Positions 40,619-56,010 of a stretch of DNA of 64,000 bases are shown here, one piece after another. Every line of letters starts with the position of its first letter. Position 1 is the first letter of the stretch. Position numbers and translations under genes: made by a program. Location of the stretch: IMG/VR virus record IMGVR_UViG_3300021399_000004, positions 1 through 64,000 of that record, one strand, 5' to 3'. The stretch is from a virus. The notes under the pieces are model-generated. The model saw only the letters and a program-made list of their open reading frames with translations, was not told where the DNA came from and ran no database searches.

Positions 40619-43261
40619 TTATGATGGTAGTTCATTTACTGCTCCAACAAGTTTATCAATAAAATCTAGGAAACCAGCAGCAAAGGTTATATTAATAGAT
40701 ACTTCACTGCTGGCTTTTCTCCCAATGAAATTCCAATCAGATGGCGTCGCAAAGGTTTGTACTCCATCATTTCCCGCCCAACTTCTTGGAGTATGATTTT
40801 CAATGGTAGCTTGAATTCTTTGATCAGTAGGAATACCTTCAGTTTTGTGAATCATCTGATCTATATATTCTTTAGTCTAAAAAATTAAATATGACTATGG
40901 GACTAATACACCATTTAATTCATATAGATGTAAAAATTTTGGATCTCCAGCTTCTTCTACCTTAGATAATATTCTTTTAACCTCTGCCCCGCTGTCATTG
41001 AATAGTAGGACACTAGCTATCGCGGAAAAAATATTTTCCAAGTGCGACCGTTCTTTCTCAGCAACCAATCCAGGAGCCGCATTGCAAACCATGGTTGTTA
41101 ATATTTTTACATCAGGTAATGTTATTCCTCCAGCTTTTGCCATGAATGCGATATTTTCTAATTGTCGATTAATAGTACTGCCGAGTGTTCCGCCATGAAA
41201 ACCCATATCTTTAGAAAAATATGCATGATAATTTTTAACTGTTTCACTGATTTGAATATAATTCTTTAAGGTACTTATAGCTTTTTGATCGTCTTTGATT
41301 GAAATAATAGCTTTTTGATCTTCCTTATAAAAATAAATATTAGAAAAAGTTAATGACCCTAGATTCCATGCTTTGTCTATTTCACGCTCTACGACGGTTT
41401 GAAGGCGGTCTAATGCTCCCTCTGTTTGTTTTAGATCTGCCTCTGCGAGCATTGAATTTACTCTAACACCAGCCTCATCTCGAATGGCTCTAGCTTGTTT
41501 GAGTATTGTCCGAGAGCTTCTACGCAATTTTGGGTCTTTTTGATTAGCTTTGCTAGCAGTCATAGTCTAAATTCTAATAATTTCTGGCAAAGAATGGCTC
41601 ATTGCTTTTTCTAATTCTTCAGCTGCCTTATTTGGTGTTCCAATAAATTCTCCAATCACTATATCGGATTTTGTAGAAGTACCACTAGATAAACCAGTTA
41701 AATTATCAATACAACATTTTTTTAAGTCTCTCTAAGGTAGCATTTCAATTAAGCTAGAAGCAGCAGATGATTCAGCAATAGCAGATGGGCGAAAATGAAA
41801 TTTGGCTTGATGTTGCGTGGATACTAAAATATCTTTAATATGTTGAATAATTTTTTCTCCATCTAATCGCCTGTTGGCTGTTTTACTGTCTGAGAAAATC
41901 GTAGTAATAATATCTAATACTTTACTACGTGCATTTTTTTCTGCATCTTGGATAATTTTGTCTAGCTTTTCTTTTTGTTTTTCGCTTAAATTTTGATAAT
42001 TATTTTTAATCCACTATTCACAAGCTAAAAAAACTTCTGAAGCTATTCGTGTTAATCCTCGGATAGTTGTTCTGGCCTCTGTATTCCCTACGCTAAGGTT
42101 TTGAGGCAGGTCTTCAATTTTATATAGCTACATTAATCGTTCAACTTCACGATCATTTTCGTCAGCTTGCAGCTAATAAAAACGGGTTAATTGTCTATTA
42201 AAATTAGATGTTTCAGACGTCGCAAATACATCTCTAGTTAATTCTACATCCGTTGCATGATTATTTGTCTCTACTCGTGCATCTATTGTATGCCGCAAAG
42301 CACTAATAAACTGTTCTATTATCTAATTAACCTCTGATTCATCTAACGCGGCATTAGAAGATAAATATGGATTTTTAGCATAAGCGAAGATTGCTGAACG
42401 ATTAATTCTCATAAAATTTTCTAATAAAAAGGGTAACATCGTCATGTCAATATCTATATCTTTTGGCCGGCCTTTTAATAAAAGTTCTTTAATTGTATTA
42501 TTAAAACTTCTATCAGTCATAATTTTATCATAGCATAACTGCAATGCTTTTGCACAATGAGCAGCTAACGTTTCTGTTGCTTCTTGTATTGCTTGTAAAT
42601 CTTTTTTTTCTTTGTCAGACGTTGTTTTTCTTAGTAACTTAGATTCAATAAAGCCTTCCCAAGCCTAGTCTTGTTTATCATTATTCATTTCTCTCATGTT
42701 CTTGCTGCGACTACGCTATAAGGTAGCCCTATTATGGTGTTCAGCCCATTTATTGGCATAGATAGATATGCTACGTTGACTTAAGTTCTCAAATTCCTCT
42801 CTCTATTTTTGTATAATACGTAAGCGTTTTTGCTCTACGTCTAATAAAAATTTTAAATCATTAGTACTCTATGAATTGAGCTAATTAATCAATGCTATAA
42901 AAGGAAAAAAATTTTTGTTATGATATGCTTCATCAAGCGCTGATTCTAATTTAGTTTTAGTTTGACTGCCAAAATTATTATTATTTGAAATTTGTGTTGA
43001 AAAAAATAAATTTTCACTGTTAAGTGATCGCTTATACATGCGATTTAAAAAATTAAGAATTTCTTGATATACAGCGGTTAAATCTTTCCTTCTGCCCTTG
43101 TCACTAGTATGATAAGCAAGTCCAGCTTTTGCTTCTGTCCATAAATCCTAACCATATGTTTGTAATGAAGAAAAATATAAATATCTTTTACCTGGCTGAA
43201 ACTGAGATAACGGATAGCCAACACCATAGTATTCATTGCCAGGATGTCCTTCTATTGCCAT
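40619..43261 (-). CDS. large hypothetical protein (~880 aa, about 14 in-frame TAG)
   Basis: Track fragments 40619..40855, 40895..41563 and 42323..42544 share one frame. The hand-checked junctions contain only TAG. ATG at 43261 follows a terminator. Confidence 0.55.
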
Positions 43262-43693: not shown

Positions 43694-44932
43694 TTAACTA
43701 TGATATTTCATCAAATATTCGGGTGAGACGCATTTAAATGATTTTACGCCATCGAGAGAACGGCATACGATGCCTTCCTTTAATTCTCCATTAATAACCG
43801 AAGGCTGGCTATTTACATACTCTCGAAGTTCTTCTACTGAATCAGGTAGAATATATGCTTCATTAAGAATTGGCACACATGGAACATTATATTTTTCTTC
43901 AAGAAGTTTCTTCATCTCACAACTGTTCCAGCGCCCTTTATCGGAAGTAATAAGGTTAAAAGCCATAAAATCATGACCTTTTAGCCCATAAGTATTGCGC
44001 TGGACTCCTTCTCCATAAGTTTCTCCCTGGATTGTAACCCATTTTGCAGAAGGAGTTTCTTTAAGGAACTGAGATAATACTTCAAACATATGGTATTTTT
44101 CAGCCATTTCTAAATAAATATTAGAGTCATAATAGCATTGTTTTTTATTTTCATTACCAAAACATACATTACGAGAGCAGACATAAAATTCTTTCTTATT
44201 AAATCTGCCACGTCTCATCGTGAAAGTAGTTGATGAACCATCACACTTCTCTGTTACAATCCAAGGACTTTTATCTTTGAGTGTCCAAATTTGGTTTTCA
44301 ATTCTTTCTTCGTCAGTCTTTTTTACCCACGCAGGCCAATTATTCTTCTTATCGCCTTTTCTCCCGAAAAGTAAAAACATTATCTTGCGGCCGCACTTAT
44401 ATTTCATAAGCCAACGCACAATTGGCTTCTTGAAAATCTTAGGATGCCGTTGCGCCATTTTCTTGTATTTATCTATAGATGGCGCTTTGCGCTGATTATC
44501 CTCTTCATCTGCATAAGTTACACCAAGCTGCTTAGTCAGGAAACGAGATTCGTTTTCTACATTATGGCTATGTCCTTCATTATCTATGATATAAGGAGTA
44601 TTATATCCTTCAATATTGAGCGCGGGCGCAACATGCCATCCAAAATCTTCTGCGCTCATTAGTAAGCCTTGCGACACAACTTTGCACATTTTAAGGGTCT
44701 TAATTTTATAATTGCGCTTTTCAAGGAAAGCAAAGCACTCTTTATTTGAAGGCACCTTAGAGTCAATCTCAAAGTAAATACCAGGGTCGCCTGGTTTAAA
44801 TTGATCCTTCTTAACTATAACGGCCCAACCGCCAACATGCGCCAATTCTACTCGATCATATCCTGTAATAGAGCTGATCGTATCAACAGTAACTATATAA
44901 CAAAGCTCTCTTTCGCCCGCGGAATTAAGCAT
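43694..44932 (-). CDS. ATP-dependent RNA ligase (DRB0094-like family)
   Basis: 412 aa with no TAG. Nucleotidyltransferase motif I VTEKCDGSS. The N-terminal domain GYDRVELAHVGGWAVIVKKDQFKPGD is typical of this RNA ligase family. Confidence 0.7.
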   Translation of the reverse strand: MLNSAGERELCYIVTVDTISSITGYDRVELAHVGGWAVIVKKDQFKPGDPGIYFEIDSKVPSNKECFAFLEKRNYKIKTLKMCKVVSQGLLMSAEDFGWHVAPALNIEGYNTPYIIDNEGHSHNVENESRFLTKQLGVTYADEEDNQRKAPSIDKYKKMAQRHPKIFKKPIVRWLMKYKCGRKIMFLLFGRKGDKKNNWPAWVKKTDEERIENQIWTLKDKSPWIVTEKCDGSSTTFTMRRGRFNKKEFYVCSRNVCFGNENKKQCYYDSNIYLEMAEKYHMFEVLSQFLKETPSAKWVTIQGETYGEGVQRNTYGLKGHDFMAFNLITSDKGRWNSCEMKKLLEEKYNVPCVPILNEAYILPDSVEELREYVNSQPSVINGELKEGIVCRSLDGVKSFKCVSPEYLMKYHS

Positions 44933-45164
44933 TTTTGTTTAACCTCCAATGAAAGAACTCATCATGACTACCAATGTCATAATGAATTTCTCCGTCACTT
45001 TCCCATGTACGAATGTAATGGGATTTAAAGTTTTTACCATCTCTACGCTTCTTATTACACTCATCTACAAACTTATTAATTTCTCTATATACCTGCTCTT
45101 GATTATCGCAATTTGCGATAACCTTACGCTCACCATAATGATTTTCAAAATAAAGCTCGCCCAT
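44925..45164 (-). CDS. hypothetical protein
   Basis: 79-aa track ORF. Confidence 0.45.
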   Translation of the reverse strand: MGELYFENHYGERKVIANCDNQEQVYREINKFVDECNKKRRDGKNFKSHYIRTWESDGEIHYDIGSHDEFFHWRLNKNA

Positions 45165-45165
45165 A

Positions 45166-46008
45166 TTACTTAATCTCCTTACAATAATATACGACAGTTT
45201 GCTTTACGCCTTCATATTCTCGATGCTCTTTAACTTTCATTCTCAAATTGTATACCTTATCTACTTCGAGGCTTTTTGATGAAGTAGACCAAACATAAAC
45301 ATTACCTTCATTATCTTCCATCACATGAAAATTAGAAGCTCCATAATAACCATCATTACGAATATTTTTCTTAATAGTGACTTCTTTTTCAAGCCAGTTA
45401 CCTACTTCGCCCTGATAATCACTAGTGCTTTCACCATACAATTTAGTATGGACATACCGCCGCACTTCATCGTTATCCCGCATAGTAAGTCCTTCAGGGT
45501 CATTATTATCCTTAACTTCATCCCACTGAAGAACAACCTTCTCTATTTCATCAGGAAGGTTCACAATCTCCATCCTGCTCGGGCAGAACCATCCAAAGAA
45601 AGTATTATATCGTGCACGGCAGGGCGAAGTCTCATGAGCCCAATCATCAAGGACTTTGCTGTCTCCACGGAAGATAGTAATGAATCCGGCTTCTCCAAAA
45701 CCGAAAGCATTTTTTGCCGCAAACTTAATTCTACGCTGCTCTACCTTAGCCTCTTTTGCGGCCTGACGCTTTTCTGCCGCTTTATCCATGGCAGCACGCT
45801 GGGCATCGGTATACCACCGCACTTCCATGTACTCATAGCCGCGGCCGCCACAACGGTAACAAGTAGTGTCGCCCTGCGCGTTCATTGAATAGTGTCCTGA
45901 ACCGCCGCACCGCTTGCAAGCTCCTTTTACTCGAACCCACATCTTCTTTTCGCGCTCAAAGGGTTCACCACAAATTTCCATGTTTTCATAGCTACGGGCA
46001 ACTGCCAT
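45166..46008 (-). CDS. hypothetical protein with DnaJ-type CxxCxGxG zinc finger
   Basis: 280 aa with CKRCGGSGHY and CYRCGGRGY. Confidence 0.5.
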   Translation of the reverse strand: MAVARSYENMEICGEPFEREKKMWVRVKGACKRCGGSGHYSMNAQGDTTCYRCGGRGYEYMEVRWYTDAQRAAMDKAAEKRQAAKEAKVEQRRIKFAAKNAFGFGEAGFITIFRGDSKVLDDWAHETSPCRARYNTFFGWFCPSRMEIVNLPDEIEKVVLQWDEVKDNNDPEGLTMRDNDEVRRYVHTKLYGESTSDYQGEVGNWLEKEVTIKKNIRNDGYYGASNFHVMEDNEGNVYVWSTSSKSLEVDKVYNLRMKVKEHREYEGVKQTVVYYCKEIK

Positions 46009-47055: not shown

Positions 47056-47245
47056 ATAGTATGCCTTATCTAACATACCTGTTGGCGCATACTACCGCAG
47101 CCGAAGCGTTCGTCGTTCACGAGACACTGGTTAGATTTTGAAGTATTAAGTAAGAAGTTCATCTATACTCACTTCTCCCTATCCAGCCGCCGGACTTCAA
47201 CCGACCCGTCACATCCTGTCAATTCAGGCTTTACTCGGCTTGAAG
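47056..47245 (-). ncRNA. structured spacer RNA between tRNA-Asn and tRNA-Gly (unknown)
   Basis: 190 nt with no credible ORF and GC-richer than coding DNA. Several hairpins (AGUAUGC/GCAUACU, GAAGU/ACUUC, a GCUUCGGC tetraloop) and a long-range CUGGAUAG/CUAACCAG helix. Confidence 0.3.
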
Positions 47246-47319
47246 CGCTCCCTGTAGGACTTGAACCTACGACCCATTGCTTAACAGGCAATTGCTGCTA
47301 CCGACTGAGCTAAAGGAGC
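47246..47319 (-). tRNA. tRNA-Asn(GUU)
   Basis: Acceptor GCUCCUU/AGGGAGC, anticodon stem AUUGC/GCAAU with loop CUGUUAA, T arm GUAGG-UUCAAGU-CCUAC, discriminator G. Confidence 0.8.
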
Positions 47320-49454: not shown

Positions 49455-49551
49455 AATATCACCTTTAAAATAAAATGGTGTGGCTTCACGTCACCACAAC
49501 GACATATGGGTTCTTGCGCGGGCTAACCTCTTTTGTTCTAAAAGCCACTAG

Positions 49552-49626
49552 TACCCTCGGTGGGAGTTGAACCCACAGAAAACCACATTTTGAGTGTGGC
49601 GCATATGCCAATTCTGCTACGAGGGC
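49552..49626 (-). tRNA. tRNA with anticodon CAA (Leu codon UUG) but class-I architecture
   Basis: Anticodon stem CCACA/UGUGG with loop CUCAAAA, T arm GUGGG-UUCAACU-CCCAC, only a 6-nt variable region, discriminator A. Confidence 0.6.
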
Positions 49627-51753: not shown

Positions 51754-51768
51754 TATTTTTAAAATAAA

Positions 51769-51853
51769 CAGCCCGCTTGGGAGTCGAACCCAATCTGTCG
51801 CTTCAGAGGCTGTGGTTTTAGAGACCACCCGTGCAGCCGCACACCTACGGGCT
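51769..51853 (-). tRNA. suppressor tRNA, anticodon CUA (reads UAG), class-II architecture
   Basis: Acceptor AGCCCGU/GCGGGCU, anticodon stem GUGGU/ACCAC with loop CUCUAAA, an 18-nt variable region containing a UCUG/CAGA stem, T arm UUGGG-UUCGACU-CCCAA, discriminator G. D region is GCGGCUGCACGG. Confidence 0.8.
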
Positions 51854-51886
51854 ATATAAGTGAGGTTTCCCTCACTTTCTATAATA

Positions 51887-52456: not shown

Positions 52457-53066
52457 GAAAGAGGATACTCTACTTAACAATTATAGTGACCTTCGTCATA
52501 CTTGCAGCATTCTTCAATTATATTCAACCACTACAGAATTAAAGGCTGAGCCATGAGTAGCGACCTCATAACTTCTTTAATCCGCTTTCGCCTAGTGTAG
52601 GAGGGGTTGTTTACCCTCAAGTTTCAGCCAAACCATTCAGCAAATACGATAAAAAAGCTTACCCCGCTTTTGTTTATCATGCTAAATTTCTGTCTTGGCC
52701 TACTCCAACTTTAAACCTTTCTTATATGCCATTTCTGGCTTTCATCGACAGTAACCGCTTGTTGGTCTTTCCTGAGTTTGTACTGGCTACCACCCCAATA
52801 CCTTATCAGGATTCGGCATTATCTATTCAATACTGCTGTCTATTATGCGGCCGAAAGGAATAATGTTTTTAATTGCGAATACTCAAGCGCCTATCCTTAA
52901 TCTTTGGAGTTTCTCCTTTATCGCTAATCATTGCTGATTTCGCGGCTAGATAATAAAAGTATCCTTCTATCATTGCTAGCGATTGTCCGGATAGCCCAAG
53001 CTACGTGGTTAGCGTATCTGCACTTGGTTCTAAAATTGCTAAGTAGAATATCCTCCCTCTCAGTAT
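52457..53066 (-). ncRNA. large structured RNA 1 (~610 nt; ROOL-like candidate by size and context only)
   Basis: Starts just downstream of consensus promoter 53073-53101 and ends at tRNA-Thr. No ORF on the transcribed strand. Visibly GC-richer. The ends pair over 19 bp (53037-53055 with 52472-52490), and the two differences between the arms are both G-U compatible. Confidence 0.55.
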
Positions 53067-53186: not shown

Positions 53187-53386
53187 ATATTCACTTACTT
53201 TCGTTGTCTTTTTATTATAGTGTGCTGCTAAATGACTAAGCCACATATCTTTTAACTCCACTAAAGCACATTTGGTTTAGCATTTCCTTACTTGGTCTAC
53301 AGTTAAAAGCCGGTGGTAGTTTAGTGAGAATCCATCCTTACCGCACACTAGGCCTATTTTATTACACGCAGAGCGCCCATGCGTAC
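53187..53386 (-). ncRNA. structured RNA between the split tRNA and tRNA-Ala (unknown)
   Basis: Nested long-range helices UAGUGUGC/GCACACUA (53343-53350 with 53218-53225) and CUUUUAACU/AGUUAAAAG (53301-53309 with 53249-53257). No ORF. Confidence 0.4.
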
Positions 53387-53530
53387 TGGCGCTCCCCATA
53401 GGATTTGAACCTATAACCCTGCGGTTAGGGCAGAGGCGAGAATTGAACTCGCAACGTGGGCGTCCCTCACACGATTACCAAATCGTCTCTCTGCTACAGC
53501 CGCATGCTCTACCGATTGAGCTAGAGGAGC
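53387..53530 (-). tRNA. class-I tRNA (Asn GUU if joined at canonical positions) with a 68-nt insert in the anticodon loop; CCA encoded
   Basis: Perfect acceptor GCUCCUC/GGGGAGC, D arm GCUC-AAUCGGUA-GAGC, T arm AUAGG-UUCAAAU-CCUAU and anticodon stem UGCGG/CCGCA. The stem strands are 75 nt apart instead of 7. Confidence 0.6.
53428..53495 (-). ncRNA. tRNA-shaped insert within the anticodon loop of the 53387-53530 tRNA
   Basis: Acceptor-like AGCAGAG/CUCUGCC, D-like hairpin ACGAU-UUGGUA-AUCGU, short hairpin GUGAGGGACGCCCAC, canonical T arm GCGAG-UUCAAUU-CUCGC, then one discriminator-like C. Confidence 0.5.
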
Positions 53531-53569
53531 ATAGAATGGGGATTTTATTTTTCCCTCATTCACAATATA

Positions 53570-53598
53570 ATTATACATTATTTTTTACTTTAAGTCAG
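53570..53598 (-). promoter_or_regulatory. promoter CTGACT-N17-TATAAT driving the split tRNA
   Basis: attata at 53570-53575, agtcag at 53593-53598. The leader hairpin GAAUGAGGGAAAAAUAAAAUCCCCAUUC lies at 53534-53561. Confidence 0.6.
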
Positions 53599-53602
53599 AT
53601 TT

Positions 53603-55315
53603 TTAATAGTAGAAATAATATTGTTCTGGCAAATTTTTATTGTCATTTAATTCTCGTACAAAGCGTTTAATATTTGGTCTTGGAATGTATTGCGATAACT
53701 TTTTAATTCGTCTACTAAAGAATATTGATTGCTAATTTTCATTCTCTCGGCTATTTTCATCTGCATATTTCTTATAGCTTTGTAGATAAAATCGTCTTAT
53801 ATCTTTCCAATATTGCTCTAAAAATTCAGGATGGTTTTTAACACAACGAAGAAAGTAATTATACAAATCAATTAAGAAAATATTCATTTTTTCTATTATA
53901 ATACTAGTGTCTACTTTTGCTTTTTCGCATAAGTTAATACAGTAAATACCATTATCTACAATGCCTGGCAAAGCTGTATATAAAAAATTTTTATTATCCT
54001 TATATGTTAATGAATTTTTATTTACTACAGTTTTATATATTGGCAAATCATAATGCCGAATATGATATGTCTATTCTACTCTATTGTAGTCATCAATAAT
54101 AGCATAGCAAGTCAAATTTATACCACAGTCTTCTGCCGCAAAAGAACCAACACCTTGATTATATGGTAAAATATTATAAACTTCTAAGAACTCTCTACGA
54201 TATACTTTACCGGGTGTAGATGGTTCATATGCACTTTGTACTATATTATCTGCGCCGTTAATCCAACTCCATTCATAAATGTCCATAACTCTATTATTGT
54301 CTAATTCATCTTTTACAGCTAGTAAACAATATTTAGATAAAATAATATCGCCGCAATCTACAAAAGTTAAATATGTACCGTGTGTATTTTGCATGCCGAT
54401 GCGTCTGGCATTGCCGGGCCCCTAATTCTTTTCTAATTTAATCAACTATATTAATGGAAACTATTTAATTATATTAGTATAATCAACTGATGAAGCGTCA
54501 TCAATTACTACAATATGTAACCACTCATATTCTGGATAATAAACAGATTTTAAAGTACGTATTAATCCTTTTTCATCATTATAACTAGGTATAATAATAT
54601 CTAAATCTATCTTATCCGATTGATTATATATTATTTTATTATTAGGGATAGACATATATTTATTAAAAATAGGATATTTCTACCATTCATGGTTCCCTGC
54701 AAAATGATTTATTTTTCTACTTTTTGCTTTCTAAAAATCAGTAGAATCATTCATATTATAGTCAGGTGGTAAATTTAAAATATAACCTTGACATAATTTA
54801 TTTAAAGCATTTTGCTCTGGAAAAATTTCATAATGATTATTAATATAATTAATTAGTTCATCATCTTTTTTATCATCTCGTAATTTTTTTAGATTCATTA
54901 ACATAACGCCGCAGTTAATATCTAAAAACATTTCAGTACAATTAGAAGGCTAAGACGAAGCGGCAATGTAATAATCACTAATATCTATATCCCATAATTC
55001 TGAAATATTTTCATTTACAATTGTATCAACATCTAATGACAAAACTTTATCTAAGTCCGGGAATATTTTTCCTAAAGCAACTCGTATTAAGGCCATATAA
55101 GTAAATTCACTTTTAAAATTAGGCCCATGCTTATCAAAATAAGTCTAATTACTTACATTTAATGTTTTTGTTTTTGGCGGTAATTCATATGGAAATACGT
55201 CATCTTCAATTAGAAAATAAATCTATTCAACATTTGAATGAATAAGTAATGATTTTGCTGCACCAATCATATATTTGTAAAGGTTTCTGGTGCCTGTATA
55301 TACCGCTGTCCTCAT
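53603..55315 (-). CDS. fused family-8 / family-2 glycosyltransferase (about 10 in-frame TAG)
   Basis: Four track fragments (53732..54046, 54071..54394, 54461..54655, 54731..54931) plus the N-terminus share one frame, and every junction is TAG. GT8 motifs LSLDVDTIV and NCGVMLMNLKKLR. GT2 motifs IIIPSYNDE, VVIDDASS and GPGNARRIG. If the TAG at 53732 terminates, the end is 53732. Confidence 0.55.
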
Positions 55316-56010
55316 AATATTTCCTCCCATTTCAAATTGATATAATATCGTACAATGGGTTCTACAAAGAAATAATCACGAATACCAGCATAATGATAAA
55401 TTTTTCTTTTATTAGGATTATAATTCATAAATAATGGATGAGAATTATATTCTGTTGGTAATTCTAGAATATGATTCTTATATACCTTATTAAGAGTATC
55501 CTATTCGGCGTACTCTTCTCTATAATGATTTAATCTAAAAATCATTTTTTCATCCATTTTATCTTCACGAATTTTTTTTAAATTACATAATAATACTCCG
55601 CCGTTTACATATAATCCATTTTTATTAAATTCTGGTGTATCTCTTACGCCAGCAATATAATAATTTGATATATCAATATCCCAAAGTTCATCTATATTTT
55701 CAGTAACAATTGTATCAATATCTAAAGATAGAATCTTATCTAACTCTGGGAATATTTTAGAATAGACAGAGCGGATAAGAACCATATAGCCACCCCATCC
55801 ATCATACCAATTCATGCAAGTTTCTTTCTTAAACCATTGCTAATTACTGATATTAATACACTATACTTTATCTGGTAGTTCATAAGGGAAAATATCATCT
55901 TCAATTAATAAAAATATCTAATCAATATGAGAGTTCATTAGTAATGATTTTATAGCAGGTATCATTTTATAATACACATTTCGTGTTCCACTATATGCCG
56001 CTACTTTCAT
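55312..56010 (-). CDS. family-8 glycosyltransferase (4 in-frame TAG)
   Basis: ATG at 56010 to TGA at 55312. Contains LSLDIDTIV (DxD) and NGGVLLCNLKKIRE. Confidence 0.6.

Follow-up and report, generated by a model that had tools for sequence, protein, structure and literature searches.

A tRNA-Asn gene of a rumen-type phage with a tRNA-shaped insert in its anticodon loop, and related nested tRNA genes

Introduction

In the current view, all tRNA introns of bacteria and of their viruses are self-splicing, and splicing of tRNAs by proteins is a trait of archaea and eukaryotes. In this work we analysed 64,000 nucleotides of viral DNA (positions 1 to 64,000 of the IMG/VR record IMGVR_UViG_3300021399_000004; this whole stretch is hereafter called the window), in which the anticodon loop of a tRNA-Asn gene holds a 68-nt insert that is itself shaped like a tRNA. 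A full-text literature search, incomplete in coverage, returned no account of bacterial or phage tRNAs with introns of tRNA shape.

Among the described systems, group I introns in the anticodon loops of bacterial and phage tRNAs have been catalogued into 21 interruption types (bioRxiv 10.1101/2020.01.27.920355). Like the inserts reported here, they interrupt a bacterial-type anticodon loop at several loop positions, and one of them occurs in the same phage group (L355; contigs and loci are given by such L numbers throughout). However, group I introns are ribozymes of at least 190 nt with a P3-P8 core, U(-1) and omega-G, whereas the inserts reported here measure 44-117 nt, are tRNA-shaped and have no such core; unlike group I introns, they would need proteins for both cutting and joining.

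In archaeal and eukaryal tRNA introns, a splicing endonuclease cuts a bulge-helix-bulge structure and RtcB or Trl1 joins the exons, and the intron of the Haloferax pre-tRNA-Trp carries a box C/D RNA. The likeness to our locus lies in protein-dependent excision and ligation and in an intron that can carry a functional small RNA. Here, in contrast, there is no bulge-helix-bulge, no endonuclease homologue was seen, the predicted ends are 3'-OH and 5'-phosphate, and recognition would proceed through the tRNA shape of the intron itself.

tRNA-like processing signals are known from MALAT1/mascRNA, MEN-beta, the MHV68 tRNA-miRNA precursors and mitochondrial 'tRNA punctuation'. In these systems, too, a tRNA-shaped element, sometimes lacking a proper anticodon loop, allows RNase P and RNase Z to define the ends of its flanks; yet those flanks are never rejoined, whereas here they are tRNA halves needing ligation, and there is no sequence homology. 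In phage T4, damage by PrrC is healed by Pnkp and sealed by Rnl1, so that a phage ATP-dependent ligase closes a break in an anticodon loop; but in T4 the damage comes from a host defence, whereas a break at our locus would be built into the structure of the gene itself. Finally, intervening sequences of bacterial 23S rRNA are removed by RNase III and the fragments are left unligated. They resemble our case as stem-closed inserts in a structural RNA removed by a host processing RNase, but RNase III cuts inside long duplexes, whereas the cuts predicted here fall at the base of a 6-8 bp stem.

Results

Architecture of the nested tRNA-Asn gene

The gene is read on the minus strand from 53530 to 53387 and yields an RNA of 144 nt. 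When introns were allowed (option -i), ARAGORN called a 76-nt tRNA-Asn(gtt) with a 68-nt intron in the context 'gctgt-Intron-taacc', the insert splitting the anticodon between nt 35 and nt 36 of the outer tRNA-Asn. This call and the predicted fold reproduced exactly the coordinates (53428-53495) that an earlier note, made from the sequence alone, had given for the insert. Default ARAGORN and an Rfam scan at gathering thresholds both missed the nested tRNA while finding 16 and 14 other tRNAs in the window, respectively, and every tRNA called by these two default searches lies on the minus strand. The parts of the gene, with the evidence for each, are as follows:

53496..53530, minus strand: 5' exon of the outer tRNA-Asn, nt 1-35 (ARAGORN -i, fold, outer-stem covariation), with acceptor strand GCUCCUC, D arm GCUC/GAGC, anticodon-stem strand UGCGG and loop nucleotides C32 U33 G34 U35
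53428..53495, minus strand: 68-nt tRNA-like insert (folds, covariation, covariance model R1 = 96 bits)
53387..53427, minus strand: 3' exon of the outer tRNA-Asn with CCA (ARAGORN -i, fold, anticodon-masked body similarity); the exon proper, 53427-53390, holds U36 A37 A38, stem CCGCA, the variable loop, T arm AUAGG-UUCAAAU-CCUAU, acceptor GGGGAGC and discriminator G73, and the encoded CCA occupies 53389-53387

The whole layout reads GCUCCUC-UA-GCUC-AAUCGGUA-GAGC-A-UGCGG-CUGU-[68 nt]-UAA-CCGCA-GGGUU-AUAGG-UUCAAAU-CCUAU-GGGGAGC-G-CCA. The minimum-free-energy structure of the 144-nt RNA, computed with RNAfold, is a cloverleaf in a cloverleaf (-55 kcal/mol, z = -2.6). Folding statistics of this kind, drawn from single sequences, are moderate, and the case against chance rests on the comparison across independent assemblies given below. 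Without the insert, the outer molecule has the cloverleaf, the anticodon GUU, an Asn-like body and G73, which is an identity element of tRNA-Asn.

Folded alone, the insert forms a cloverleaf lacking an anticodon loop (-25.8 kcal/mol, z = -2.85). Its RNA runs AGCAGAG...CUCUGCCC and is made up of the following elements:

53495-53489 with 53435-53429, minus strand: acceptor-like stem
53486-53471, minus strand: D-like hairpin, with GG in its loop
53470-53456, minus strand: short hairpin with a GACG loop
53452-53436, minus strand: T arm GCGAG-UUCAAUU-CUCGC
53428, minus strand: discriminator-like C

Fold and covariation agree on an acceptor stem, a D arm, a UUCRANY T loop and a discriminator. The elements of the tRNA elbow are kept, namely the GG of the D-like loop, the UUCAAUU T loop and the G53-C61 closing pair, and in a permissive scan a hybrid Rfam tRNA match at the locus takes in the T arm of the insert. 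The acceptor-like stem was previously described as 7 bp long; the stem is present, but in the window it consists of 6 bp plus an A1.C72 mismatch, the full 7 bp being found in L036 and in a free-standing copy of the insert in L001. In place of a 7-nt anticodon loop there is a 3+2 bp hairpin with a GACG tetraloop, as the earlier description of a cloverleaf-like unit without such a loop had it, and therefore we call the insert tRNA-like rather than a tRNA.

Conservation and covariation in related contigs

Exact-word scans for the insert core in IMG/VR and in JGI/ENA metagenome contigs brought together six distinct nested tRNA-Asn sequences: the window, L037, L038, L039, L036 and L011 (= L040 = L041). 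In all six the 68-nt insert lies between an invariant CUGU and UAA; its last nucleotide is C in the window and L037 and U in the others, and the three nucleotides that follow are always UAA. For the anticodon to be GUU in all orthologues, the boundary must lie after the discriminator; shifting it would yield Tyr in one and His in another. The outer tRNAs, from rumen metagenomes, fall into at least four diverged versions; they use four different acceptor stems (GCUCCUC, GCUCUGG, GCCUGAU and GCCCGGU), and their T stems vary as well.

In the alignment of the nested sequences, 98.4% of cells are paired, compared to 38-57% when the partners were slid against each other. Double-sided changes occur in 10 of the 43 pairs, with 5/7 outer acceptor pairs and 3/5 outer T-stem pairs showing them and both of these stems 100% paired. 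In the insert taken alone, with the diverged L036b insert and the free-standing copy added, 9/21 pairs change on both sides and 97.6% of cells are paired. In addition, one D-like pair of the insert alternates between C-G and U-A congruently with the grouping of the outer tRNAs, which speaks for co-inheritance and against repeated recent insertion. Proteins encoded next to the nested tRNAs share only 38-55% identity with their counterparts in the window, and the nested arrangement is therefore old. Nesting thus recurs across diverged phages with compensatory changes in both cloverleaves, in line with what had been expected of a conserved element and contrary to the recent, non-conserved pseudogene for which the earlier note had allowed. 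In conclusion, we regard the existence, the conservation and the precise boundary logic of tRNA-shaped inserts in phage tRNAs as established.

The wider searches gave few further cases. A strict exon-context pattern matched only L011 and L113 in IMG/VR, where no intron-less allele of the window's exact exon sequence was found. In 185,579 bacterial and archaeal species genomes, the same pattern returned only tandem tRNA-Asn genes or chance matches, and the insert core had no match in bacterial genomes; what these species-genome scans show is only that the exon sequence is an ordinary tRNA-Asn of Clostridia and other bacteria. Searches of INPHARED phages for near and distant DNA similarity gave no match to the locus or to the surrounding 24 kb, and the window's phage group is without a cultured relative in that collection. 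Over about 1.5 Mb of related loci, covariance model R1 of the insert found no further copies, its remaining matches being low-scoring true tRNAs and a few odd tRNA-like genes. Exact-pattern scans with 15-17-mers gave almost only chance matches; a loose gapped pattern gave mostly noise among the matches listed, and ARAGORN -i run on those loci recovered L113. Three contigs of Bacteroidota metagenome-assembled genomes (L344, L345 and L347) carry a truncated 5' part of a tRNA-Asn, fused to a hairpin-like sequence, directly upstream of a complete tRNA-Asn; integrated elements with duplicated attachment sites typically show such an arrangement, which has no relation to the nested tRNAs.

Two further features of the window bear on the nested gene:

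47245-47319, minus strand: second, uninterrupted tRNA-Asn(GUU) (ARAGORN, Rfam), with anticodon stem AUUGC/GCAAU
53570..53598, minus strand: promoter-like CTGACT-17-TATAAT, ~40 nt upstream of the nested tRNA, with 10/12 consensus matches (a pattern match only)

Because the anticodon stem of the intact paralogue reads AUUGC/GCAAU, the predicted splice junction, GCAUGCGGCUGU joined to UAACCGCAGGGUUAUAGG, is specific to the nested exon pair.

A common boundary rule for different inserts in different tRNAs

By running ARAGORN with introns over the loci of related phages, we found further nested tRNAs, whose inserts are tRNA-like or minihelices of 44-117 nt, either unrelated or distantly related. 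They are listed with the 5' part of the anticodon loop, the insert and its 3' end, the 3' part of the loop and the resulting isotype or anticodon:

L113: CUGU, 85 nt ending ...U-CCA, UAA, Asn
L324: CUGU, 84 nt ending ...G-CCA, UAA, Asn
L294: CUUAU, 71 nt ending ...G-CCA, AA, Ile UAU
L038b: CUU, 75 nt ending ...A-CCA, AUAA, UAU (body not confidently typed)
L357c: CUUU, 75 nt ending ...G-CCA, UAA, Lys UUU
L036b: CUU, 69 nt ending ...A-CAA, UUAA, Lys UUU
L357b: CUU, 69 nt ending ...G-CAA, UGAC, Gln UUG
L352: CUU, 117 nt ending ...U-CCA, GUAA, Thr UGU
L250/L310/L323/L325: C, 49 nt ending ...A-CCA, UUAAAA, Leu UAA
L040: C, 44 nt (8-bp stem + U), UCAAAA, CAA

Removing the unit that begins with nt 1 of the terminal stem and ends with N73, or with a CCA or CAA following N73, leaves a 7-nt loop with C32, U33 and A37 in all 13 tabulated cases. 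For the window, removal from acceptor to discriminator leaves CUGUUAA with the anticodon GUU (Asn), as first noticed from that sequence alone, and the rule thus extends to every nested tRNA in the table. The insertion point varies (after nt 32, 34, 35 or 36), so it is the insert, and not the outer tRNA, that fixes the boundaries.

The rule was compared with the isotype of the outer bodies, assigned by similarity to 329-408 tRNAs of the same loci after masking of the anticodon. The match was Lys(UUU) for L036b and L357c, Ile(UAU) for L294, Gln for L357b, Thr for L352, and Asn for both L324 and the window; the rule-derived anticodon agrees with the body isotype in most cases tested. A scan for the longest terminal stem leaves the splice register ambiguous, since U(-1) can often pair with N73, giving (k-1, t-2) alternatives, and it was masked-body similarity that resolved it. 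On the same basis we rejected the anticodons called by ARAGORN for L037/L039 (His), L294 (Trp), L036b (Thr), L357c (Gln) and L038b (Pro). Other ARAGORN -i calls that looked unresolved or artefact-like (L327/L329 'Tyr(ata) i46', L357 'Lys(ctt) i27', L262, L277 and L251) were not counted.

Inserts that are homologous to one another can reside in different tRNAs and differ in their position within the loop. Specifically, the L036b insert in tRNA-Lys is a diverged homologue of the window insert in tRNA-Asn (68 bits on model R1, with the same 3+2 bp GACG-loop hairpin), and the L038b type is present in two tRNAs. In addition, near-identical sister phages carry insert-plus and insert-minus alleles at the same locus:

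L323 7459-7592 versus L324 7205-7290
L324 9077-9236 versus L323 9162-9238

The paired alleles share acceptor, D and T arms as well as flanks, and differ in the anticodon stem (for Leu, also in the variable arm), a pattern that resembles co-conversion of exon sequence together with the insert. We conclude that inserts have been moved or exchanged.

Such mobility, the differing anticodon stems of the paired alleles and the intact tRNA-Asn kept in the window are what would be expected if a selfish, mobile tRNA-like element had inactivated redundant phage tRNA genes. We consider this very unlikely: the arrangement has been maintained across phages with the protein divergence given above, compensatory changes affect both cloverleaves, the split anticodon loops are canonical in all types, and no degraded copies were seen among the loci examined.

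The insert as an independent gene

In L001 (= L035) the insert exists as an independent gene, 100% identical over 66-67 nt:

L001 897-962 (= L035 2689-2756): free-standing copy of the insert

This copy precedes an intact tRNA-Asn by 21 nt, and the sequence downstream of that tRNA-Asn is homologous to the corresponding flanks of L038 and of the window's intact tRNA-Asn. Judging from its sequence, the free-standing copy can presumably mature only as a tRNA-like unit, and because such a gene exists, the insert may have a function as an RNA by itself, beyond being an intron.

These data also bear on the possibility of a gene within a gene with no splicing at all, in which RNase P and RNase Z would free the tRNA-like RNA and the outer halves, never joined, would be a scaffold or by-products. 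The independent gene, with its 66 identical nucleotides, agrees with this view, as do the other intact tRNA-Asn of the window and the GACG-loop hairpin, whose conservation even in the diverged L036b suggests a function beyond excision. Nevertheless, the loop that remains after removal of the insert has 7 nt in every family, with C32, U33, A37 and an anticodon suited to the body; a mere scaffold would have no need of this. The outer stems, too, go on covarying. Furthermore, the nested Asn of L324 and the nested Leu(UAA) of L323/L325 are the only copies of their isoacceptor in a 20-kb cluster, at loci where sister phages carry an intact gene, so that in some phages the nested gene replaces the cluster's only copy. 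An unspliced gene within a gene is, in our judgement, rather unlikely, and because of the canonical split loops, the covarying outer stems and the clusters in which the nested gene is the sole isoacceptor copy, splicing to a functional tRNA appears likely.

Comparison with ribozyme and bulge-helix-bulge introns

A permissive Rfam cmscan of 53300-53620 gave no match to any family of introns or ribozymes. A positive control came from the same phage group, where this search detected a group I intron (Rfam Intron_gpI, RF00028; 47 bits, just below the gathering score of 50; E = 7e-11):

L355 2070-2334: tRNA-Leu(UAA) with a compact 190-nt group I intron, site CUU/...G/AAAA, between U34 and A35

This phage group thus carries both ribozyme introns and tRNA-shaped inserts, and the occurrence of the former in an anticodon loop is the one observation that would suit a self-splicing or self-cleaving ribozyme, either minimal group I-like or small nucleolytic, at our locus. 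We regard that explanation as essentially excluded, since the L355 intron was detected where the insert was not, the inserts span only 44-117 nt, and the fold of the window insert is a tRNA cloverleaf with a canonical T loop. Moreover, the window-type insert ends in C or U instead of omega-G and measures 68 nt against about 190 nt or more for group I introns. The original view that it is neither a group I nor a group II ribozyme is in agreement with these results.

A bulge-helix-bulge, with two 3-nt bulges and a 4-bp helix, is not present in the predicted folds, where the two junctions fall within an internal loop flanked by the outer anticodon stem and the terminal stem of the insert. A splicing-endonuclease (EndA/Sen) domain was not found among the ~40 window ORFs scanned against Pfam, NCBIfam and PHROGs, a scan that covers 64 kb of phage DNA only.

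A candidate sealing enzyme and its neighbours

The window encodes a candidate for joining the tRNA halves, together with two adjacent ORFs:

43694..44932, minus strand: ATP-dependent RNA ligase of 412 aa, Rnl5-like (Pfam, PHROG, match to 5cot)
44925..46008, minus strand: two ORFs (79 aa and 280 aa) kept beside the ligase in relatives (synteny)

The assignment of the first ORF to an RNA ligase, already made in the earlier note, was confirmed by an N-terminal OB domain (PHA02142, PF21189), a nucleotidyltransferase domain (PF09414) with an intact motif I (KCDG, for KxDG) and a match to PHROG 968. Of the proteins with a solved structure, the closest to it is the Naegleria gruberi RNA ligase 5cot (Rnl5), matched in two segments with E = 1.5e-30, while the score against TIGR02306 (104.5 bits) is below the cutoff of 151. 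The window ligase is a divergent relative of Rnl5, with an extra ~100 aa between its two domains. Rnl5 enzymes seal 3'-OH/5'-PO4 nicks with an RNA 3'-OH strand (PMC4408790, PMC5397189), and the physiological role of the family has been described as 'uncharted' (PMC5397189).

An Rnl5-type ligase lies at most about 12 kb from the nested tRNA in the window, L250, L294, L310, L352/L353 and L324/L363 (that of L324 being seen via L363), and a shorter ORF with an RNA_ligase domain is found near the nested tRNAs of L357-L359. In L323-L326 and L352-L363, a conserved RNA-repair-like cassette stands beside the tRNA clusters (e.g. L363 6146-13318). It comprises an AAA_33/KTI12 kinase-like protein, one or two Metallophos phosphoesterases, DUF2828/DUF7788, RlaP, DUF5662, T4_Y16D, the 280-aa protein, the Rnl5-like ligase and sometimes PTH2; of all these, the window has only the 280-aa protein and the ligase. 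The 280-aa protein combines a Zn-ribbon-like CxxC motif with a C-terminal OB-like fold (AlphaFold pLDDT 87.6); Foldseek gave only weak OB-fold matches (E >= 0.009), and neither the structure model nor Foldseek gave a nuclease or kinase signal.

The cassette of the relatives, with its AAA_33/KTI12, Metallophos, RlaP and DUF2828 members, amounts to a heal-and-seal toolkit. It would suit a splicing reaction of different chemistry, modelled on the repair of PrrC damage in T4 or on eukaryal tRNA splicing, in which an endonuclease of phage or host, acting at both junctions, leaves a 2',3'-cyclic phosphate and a 5'-OH, a kinase and phosphatase heal these ends and a ligase seals them. However, we found no homologue of a healing kinase or phosphatase in the 64-kb window, which fits ends that need no healing. 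The lack of a bulge-helix-bulge and of a splicing-endonuclease domain in the folds and ORFs described above, junctions lying in an internal loop at a varying insertion point, and boundaries that coincide with the sites of tRNA end processing all speak against this chemistry as well, and we consider it distinctly unlikely.

Genomic setting

The window is part of a large phage, with genes for the Pol III alpha subunit, gyrase A and B, NrdD, DnaB, DNA ligase, ClpP and RNase H, and it is 100% identical to a rumen-type metagenome contig in ENA (L348). It carries a cluster of 16 tRNAs and a ROOL RNA. Other observations made in this region and in related contigs are the following:

52468-53051, minus strand: full-length ROOL RNA (RF03087, 328 bits), within the tRNA cluster and ~340 nt downstream of the nested tRNA
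53101-53073: strong promoter-like TTGACT-17-TATAAT with TG, by the ROOL RNA
40619-43261, minus strand: 880-codon frame downstream of the ligase, with 14 in-frame TAG codons and a TAA end, given as one gene in a public assembly
51768-51854, minus strand: 87-nt tRNA with anticodon CUA and a long variable arm
49551-49626, minus strand: tRNA with the Leu anticodon CAA
L327 4772-4836, L035 354-425 and L320 13045-13116: tRNA-like genes not called by ARAGORN

The 14 in-frame TAG codons and the tRNA with anticodon CUA indicate amber-codon recoding in part of the phage genome, which explains the many fragmented ORFs obtained with table 11 (e.g. the glycosyltransferase pieces at ~55501-55815). tRNAs with the Leu anticodon CAA (in the window, at L320 12343-12417 and as the outer tRNA of L040), or with TAG or AAG in relatives, measure 75-78 nt and are without the long variable arm that defines bacterial tRNA-Leu. 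Among the uncalled genes are a cloverleaf of 65 nt that has G33 and lacks a variable loop, and a tRNA resembling tRNA-Cys whose D arm is odd. The tRNA clusters of this phage group contain several non-canonical tRNA-shaped RNAs.

Discussion

The data presented above suggest a route by which the nested tRNA-Asn could be matured. The precursor, with its tRNA-shaped RNA between nt 35 and nt 36 of tRNA-Asn(GUU), would fold as a cloverleaf in a cloverleaf. RNase P would cut at the 5' end of the acceptor-like stem of the insert, leaving exon 1 (...CUGU) with a 3'-OH; the nucleotide before the insert is U in most insert types, and U(-1) is a preference of RNase P. An RNase Z-type endonuclease would then cut right after the discriminator of the insert, or after the encoded CCA or CAA in the other families, leaving exon 2 (UAA...) with a 5'-phosphate. 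The halves, held paired through the outer acceptor and anticodon stems, could be sealed to a normal tRNA-Asn by an ATP-dependent 3'-OH/5'-P RNA ligase, for which the phage Rnl5-type enzyme is the obvious candidate, and the released insert would be a stable tRNA-like RNA, possibly with its own function.

By sequence logic, the predicted cut sites of the inserts (nt 1; after N73 or A76) are those of RNase P and RNase Z substrates. Archaeal RNase Z (PMC7479834) and that of Thermotoga maritima (PMC1540738) cut after the discriminator in CCA-less substrates or after A76 in CCA-containing ones; some RNase Z enzymes need only an acceptor stem, and 5'-matured substrates are preferred (PMC7479834, PMC1540738). 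The two boundary classes of the inserts mirror these two cleavage modes, which fits excision of the RNase Z type. As regards the interpretation first put forward for this locus, a conserved, tRNA-like, non-ribozyme unit with an exact boundary rule is now well founded, while RNase P cleavage, RNase Z cleavage, ligation and the spliced product are all steps that we infer. We take the RNase P, RNase Z and ligase pathway to be the best-fitting mechanism, with a probability that we judge to be about even.

Several points weigh against such a pathway. The window retains an intact second tRNA-Asn, so that the nested copy could be dispensable, and pair 1-72 of the window insert is the A.C mismatch already described. 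Two inserts (L036b and L357b) end in CAA, and we know of no RNase Z behaviour for ends of this kind. With regard to joining, the family of the ligase is widespread among cultured phages, which are not known to have tRNAs of this kind, and in the present phage group the ligase appears to be a core gene, so that its proximity to the nested genes is weak support. The linkage to kinases and phosphoesterases in relatives suggests that the usual substrates of the ligase are breaks with 2',3'-cyclic phosphate and 5'-OH ends. In addition, the RNase Z of Bacillus subtilis is strongly inhibited by CCA (PMC7479834), and inserts ending in CCA would therefore need a host enzyme able to cut after A76. Finally, the Rnl5 nick-sealing ligases, to which the window enzyme is related, have been characterised on nicked duplexes and not on anticodon loops (PMC4408790, PMC5397189).

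Taking both sides into account, we tentatively propose for this group of rumen phages a previously undescribed class of introns, tRNA-shaped or acceptor-minihelix elements of the anticodon loop that would be cut out by RNase P and RNase Z, with the exons joined by the RNA-repair ligase of the phage, while the excised RNA would be stable, tRNA-like and functional in itself; this fuller reading we rate at somewhat below an even chance. More speculatively, such introns could have spread by the action of the ligase, which would insert an excised RNA into a broken anticodon loop with subsequent copying into DNA, and this would explain why the inserted unit has constant mature-tRNA ends.

Since standard tRNA finders miss nested genes, the tRNA repertoires of phages are under-counted. 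If the proposed pathway is true, it would be a third route to tRNA splicing: likeness to a tRNA alone would define the intron, RNase P and RNase Z would take it out, and a repair ligase would do the sealing. The RNA ligases of phages, including the Rnl5 family, would then gain a housekeeping substrate.

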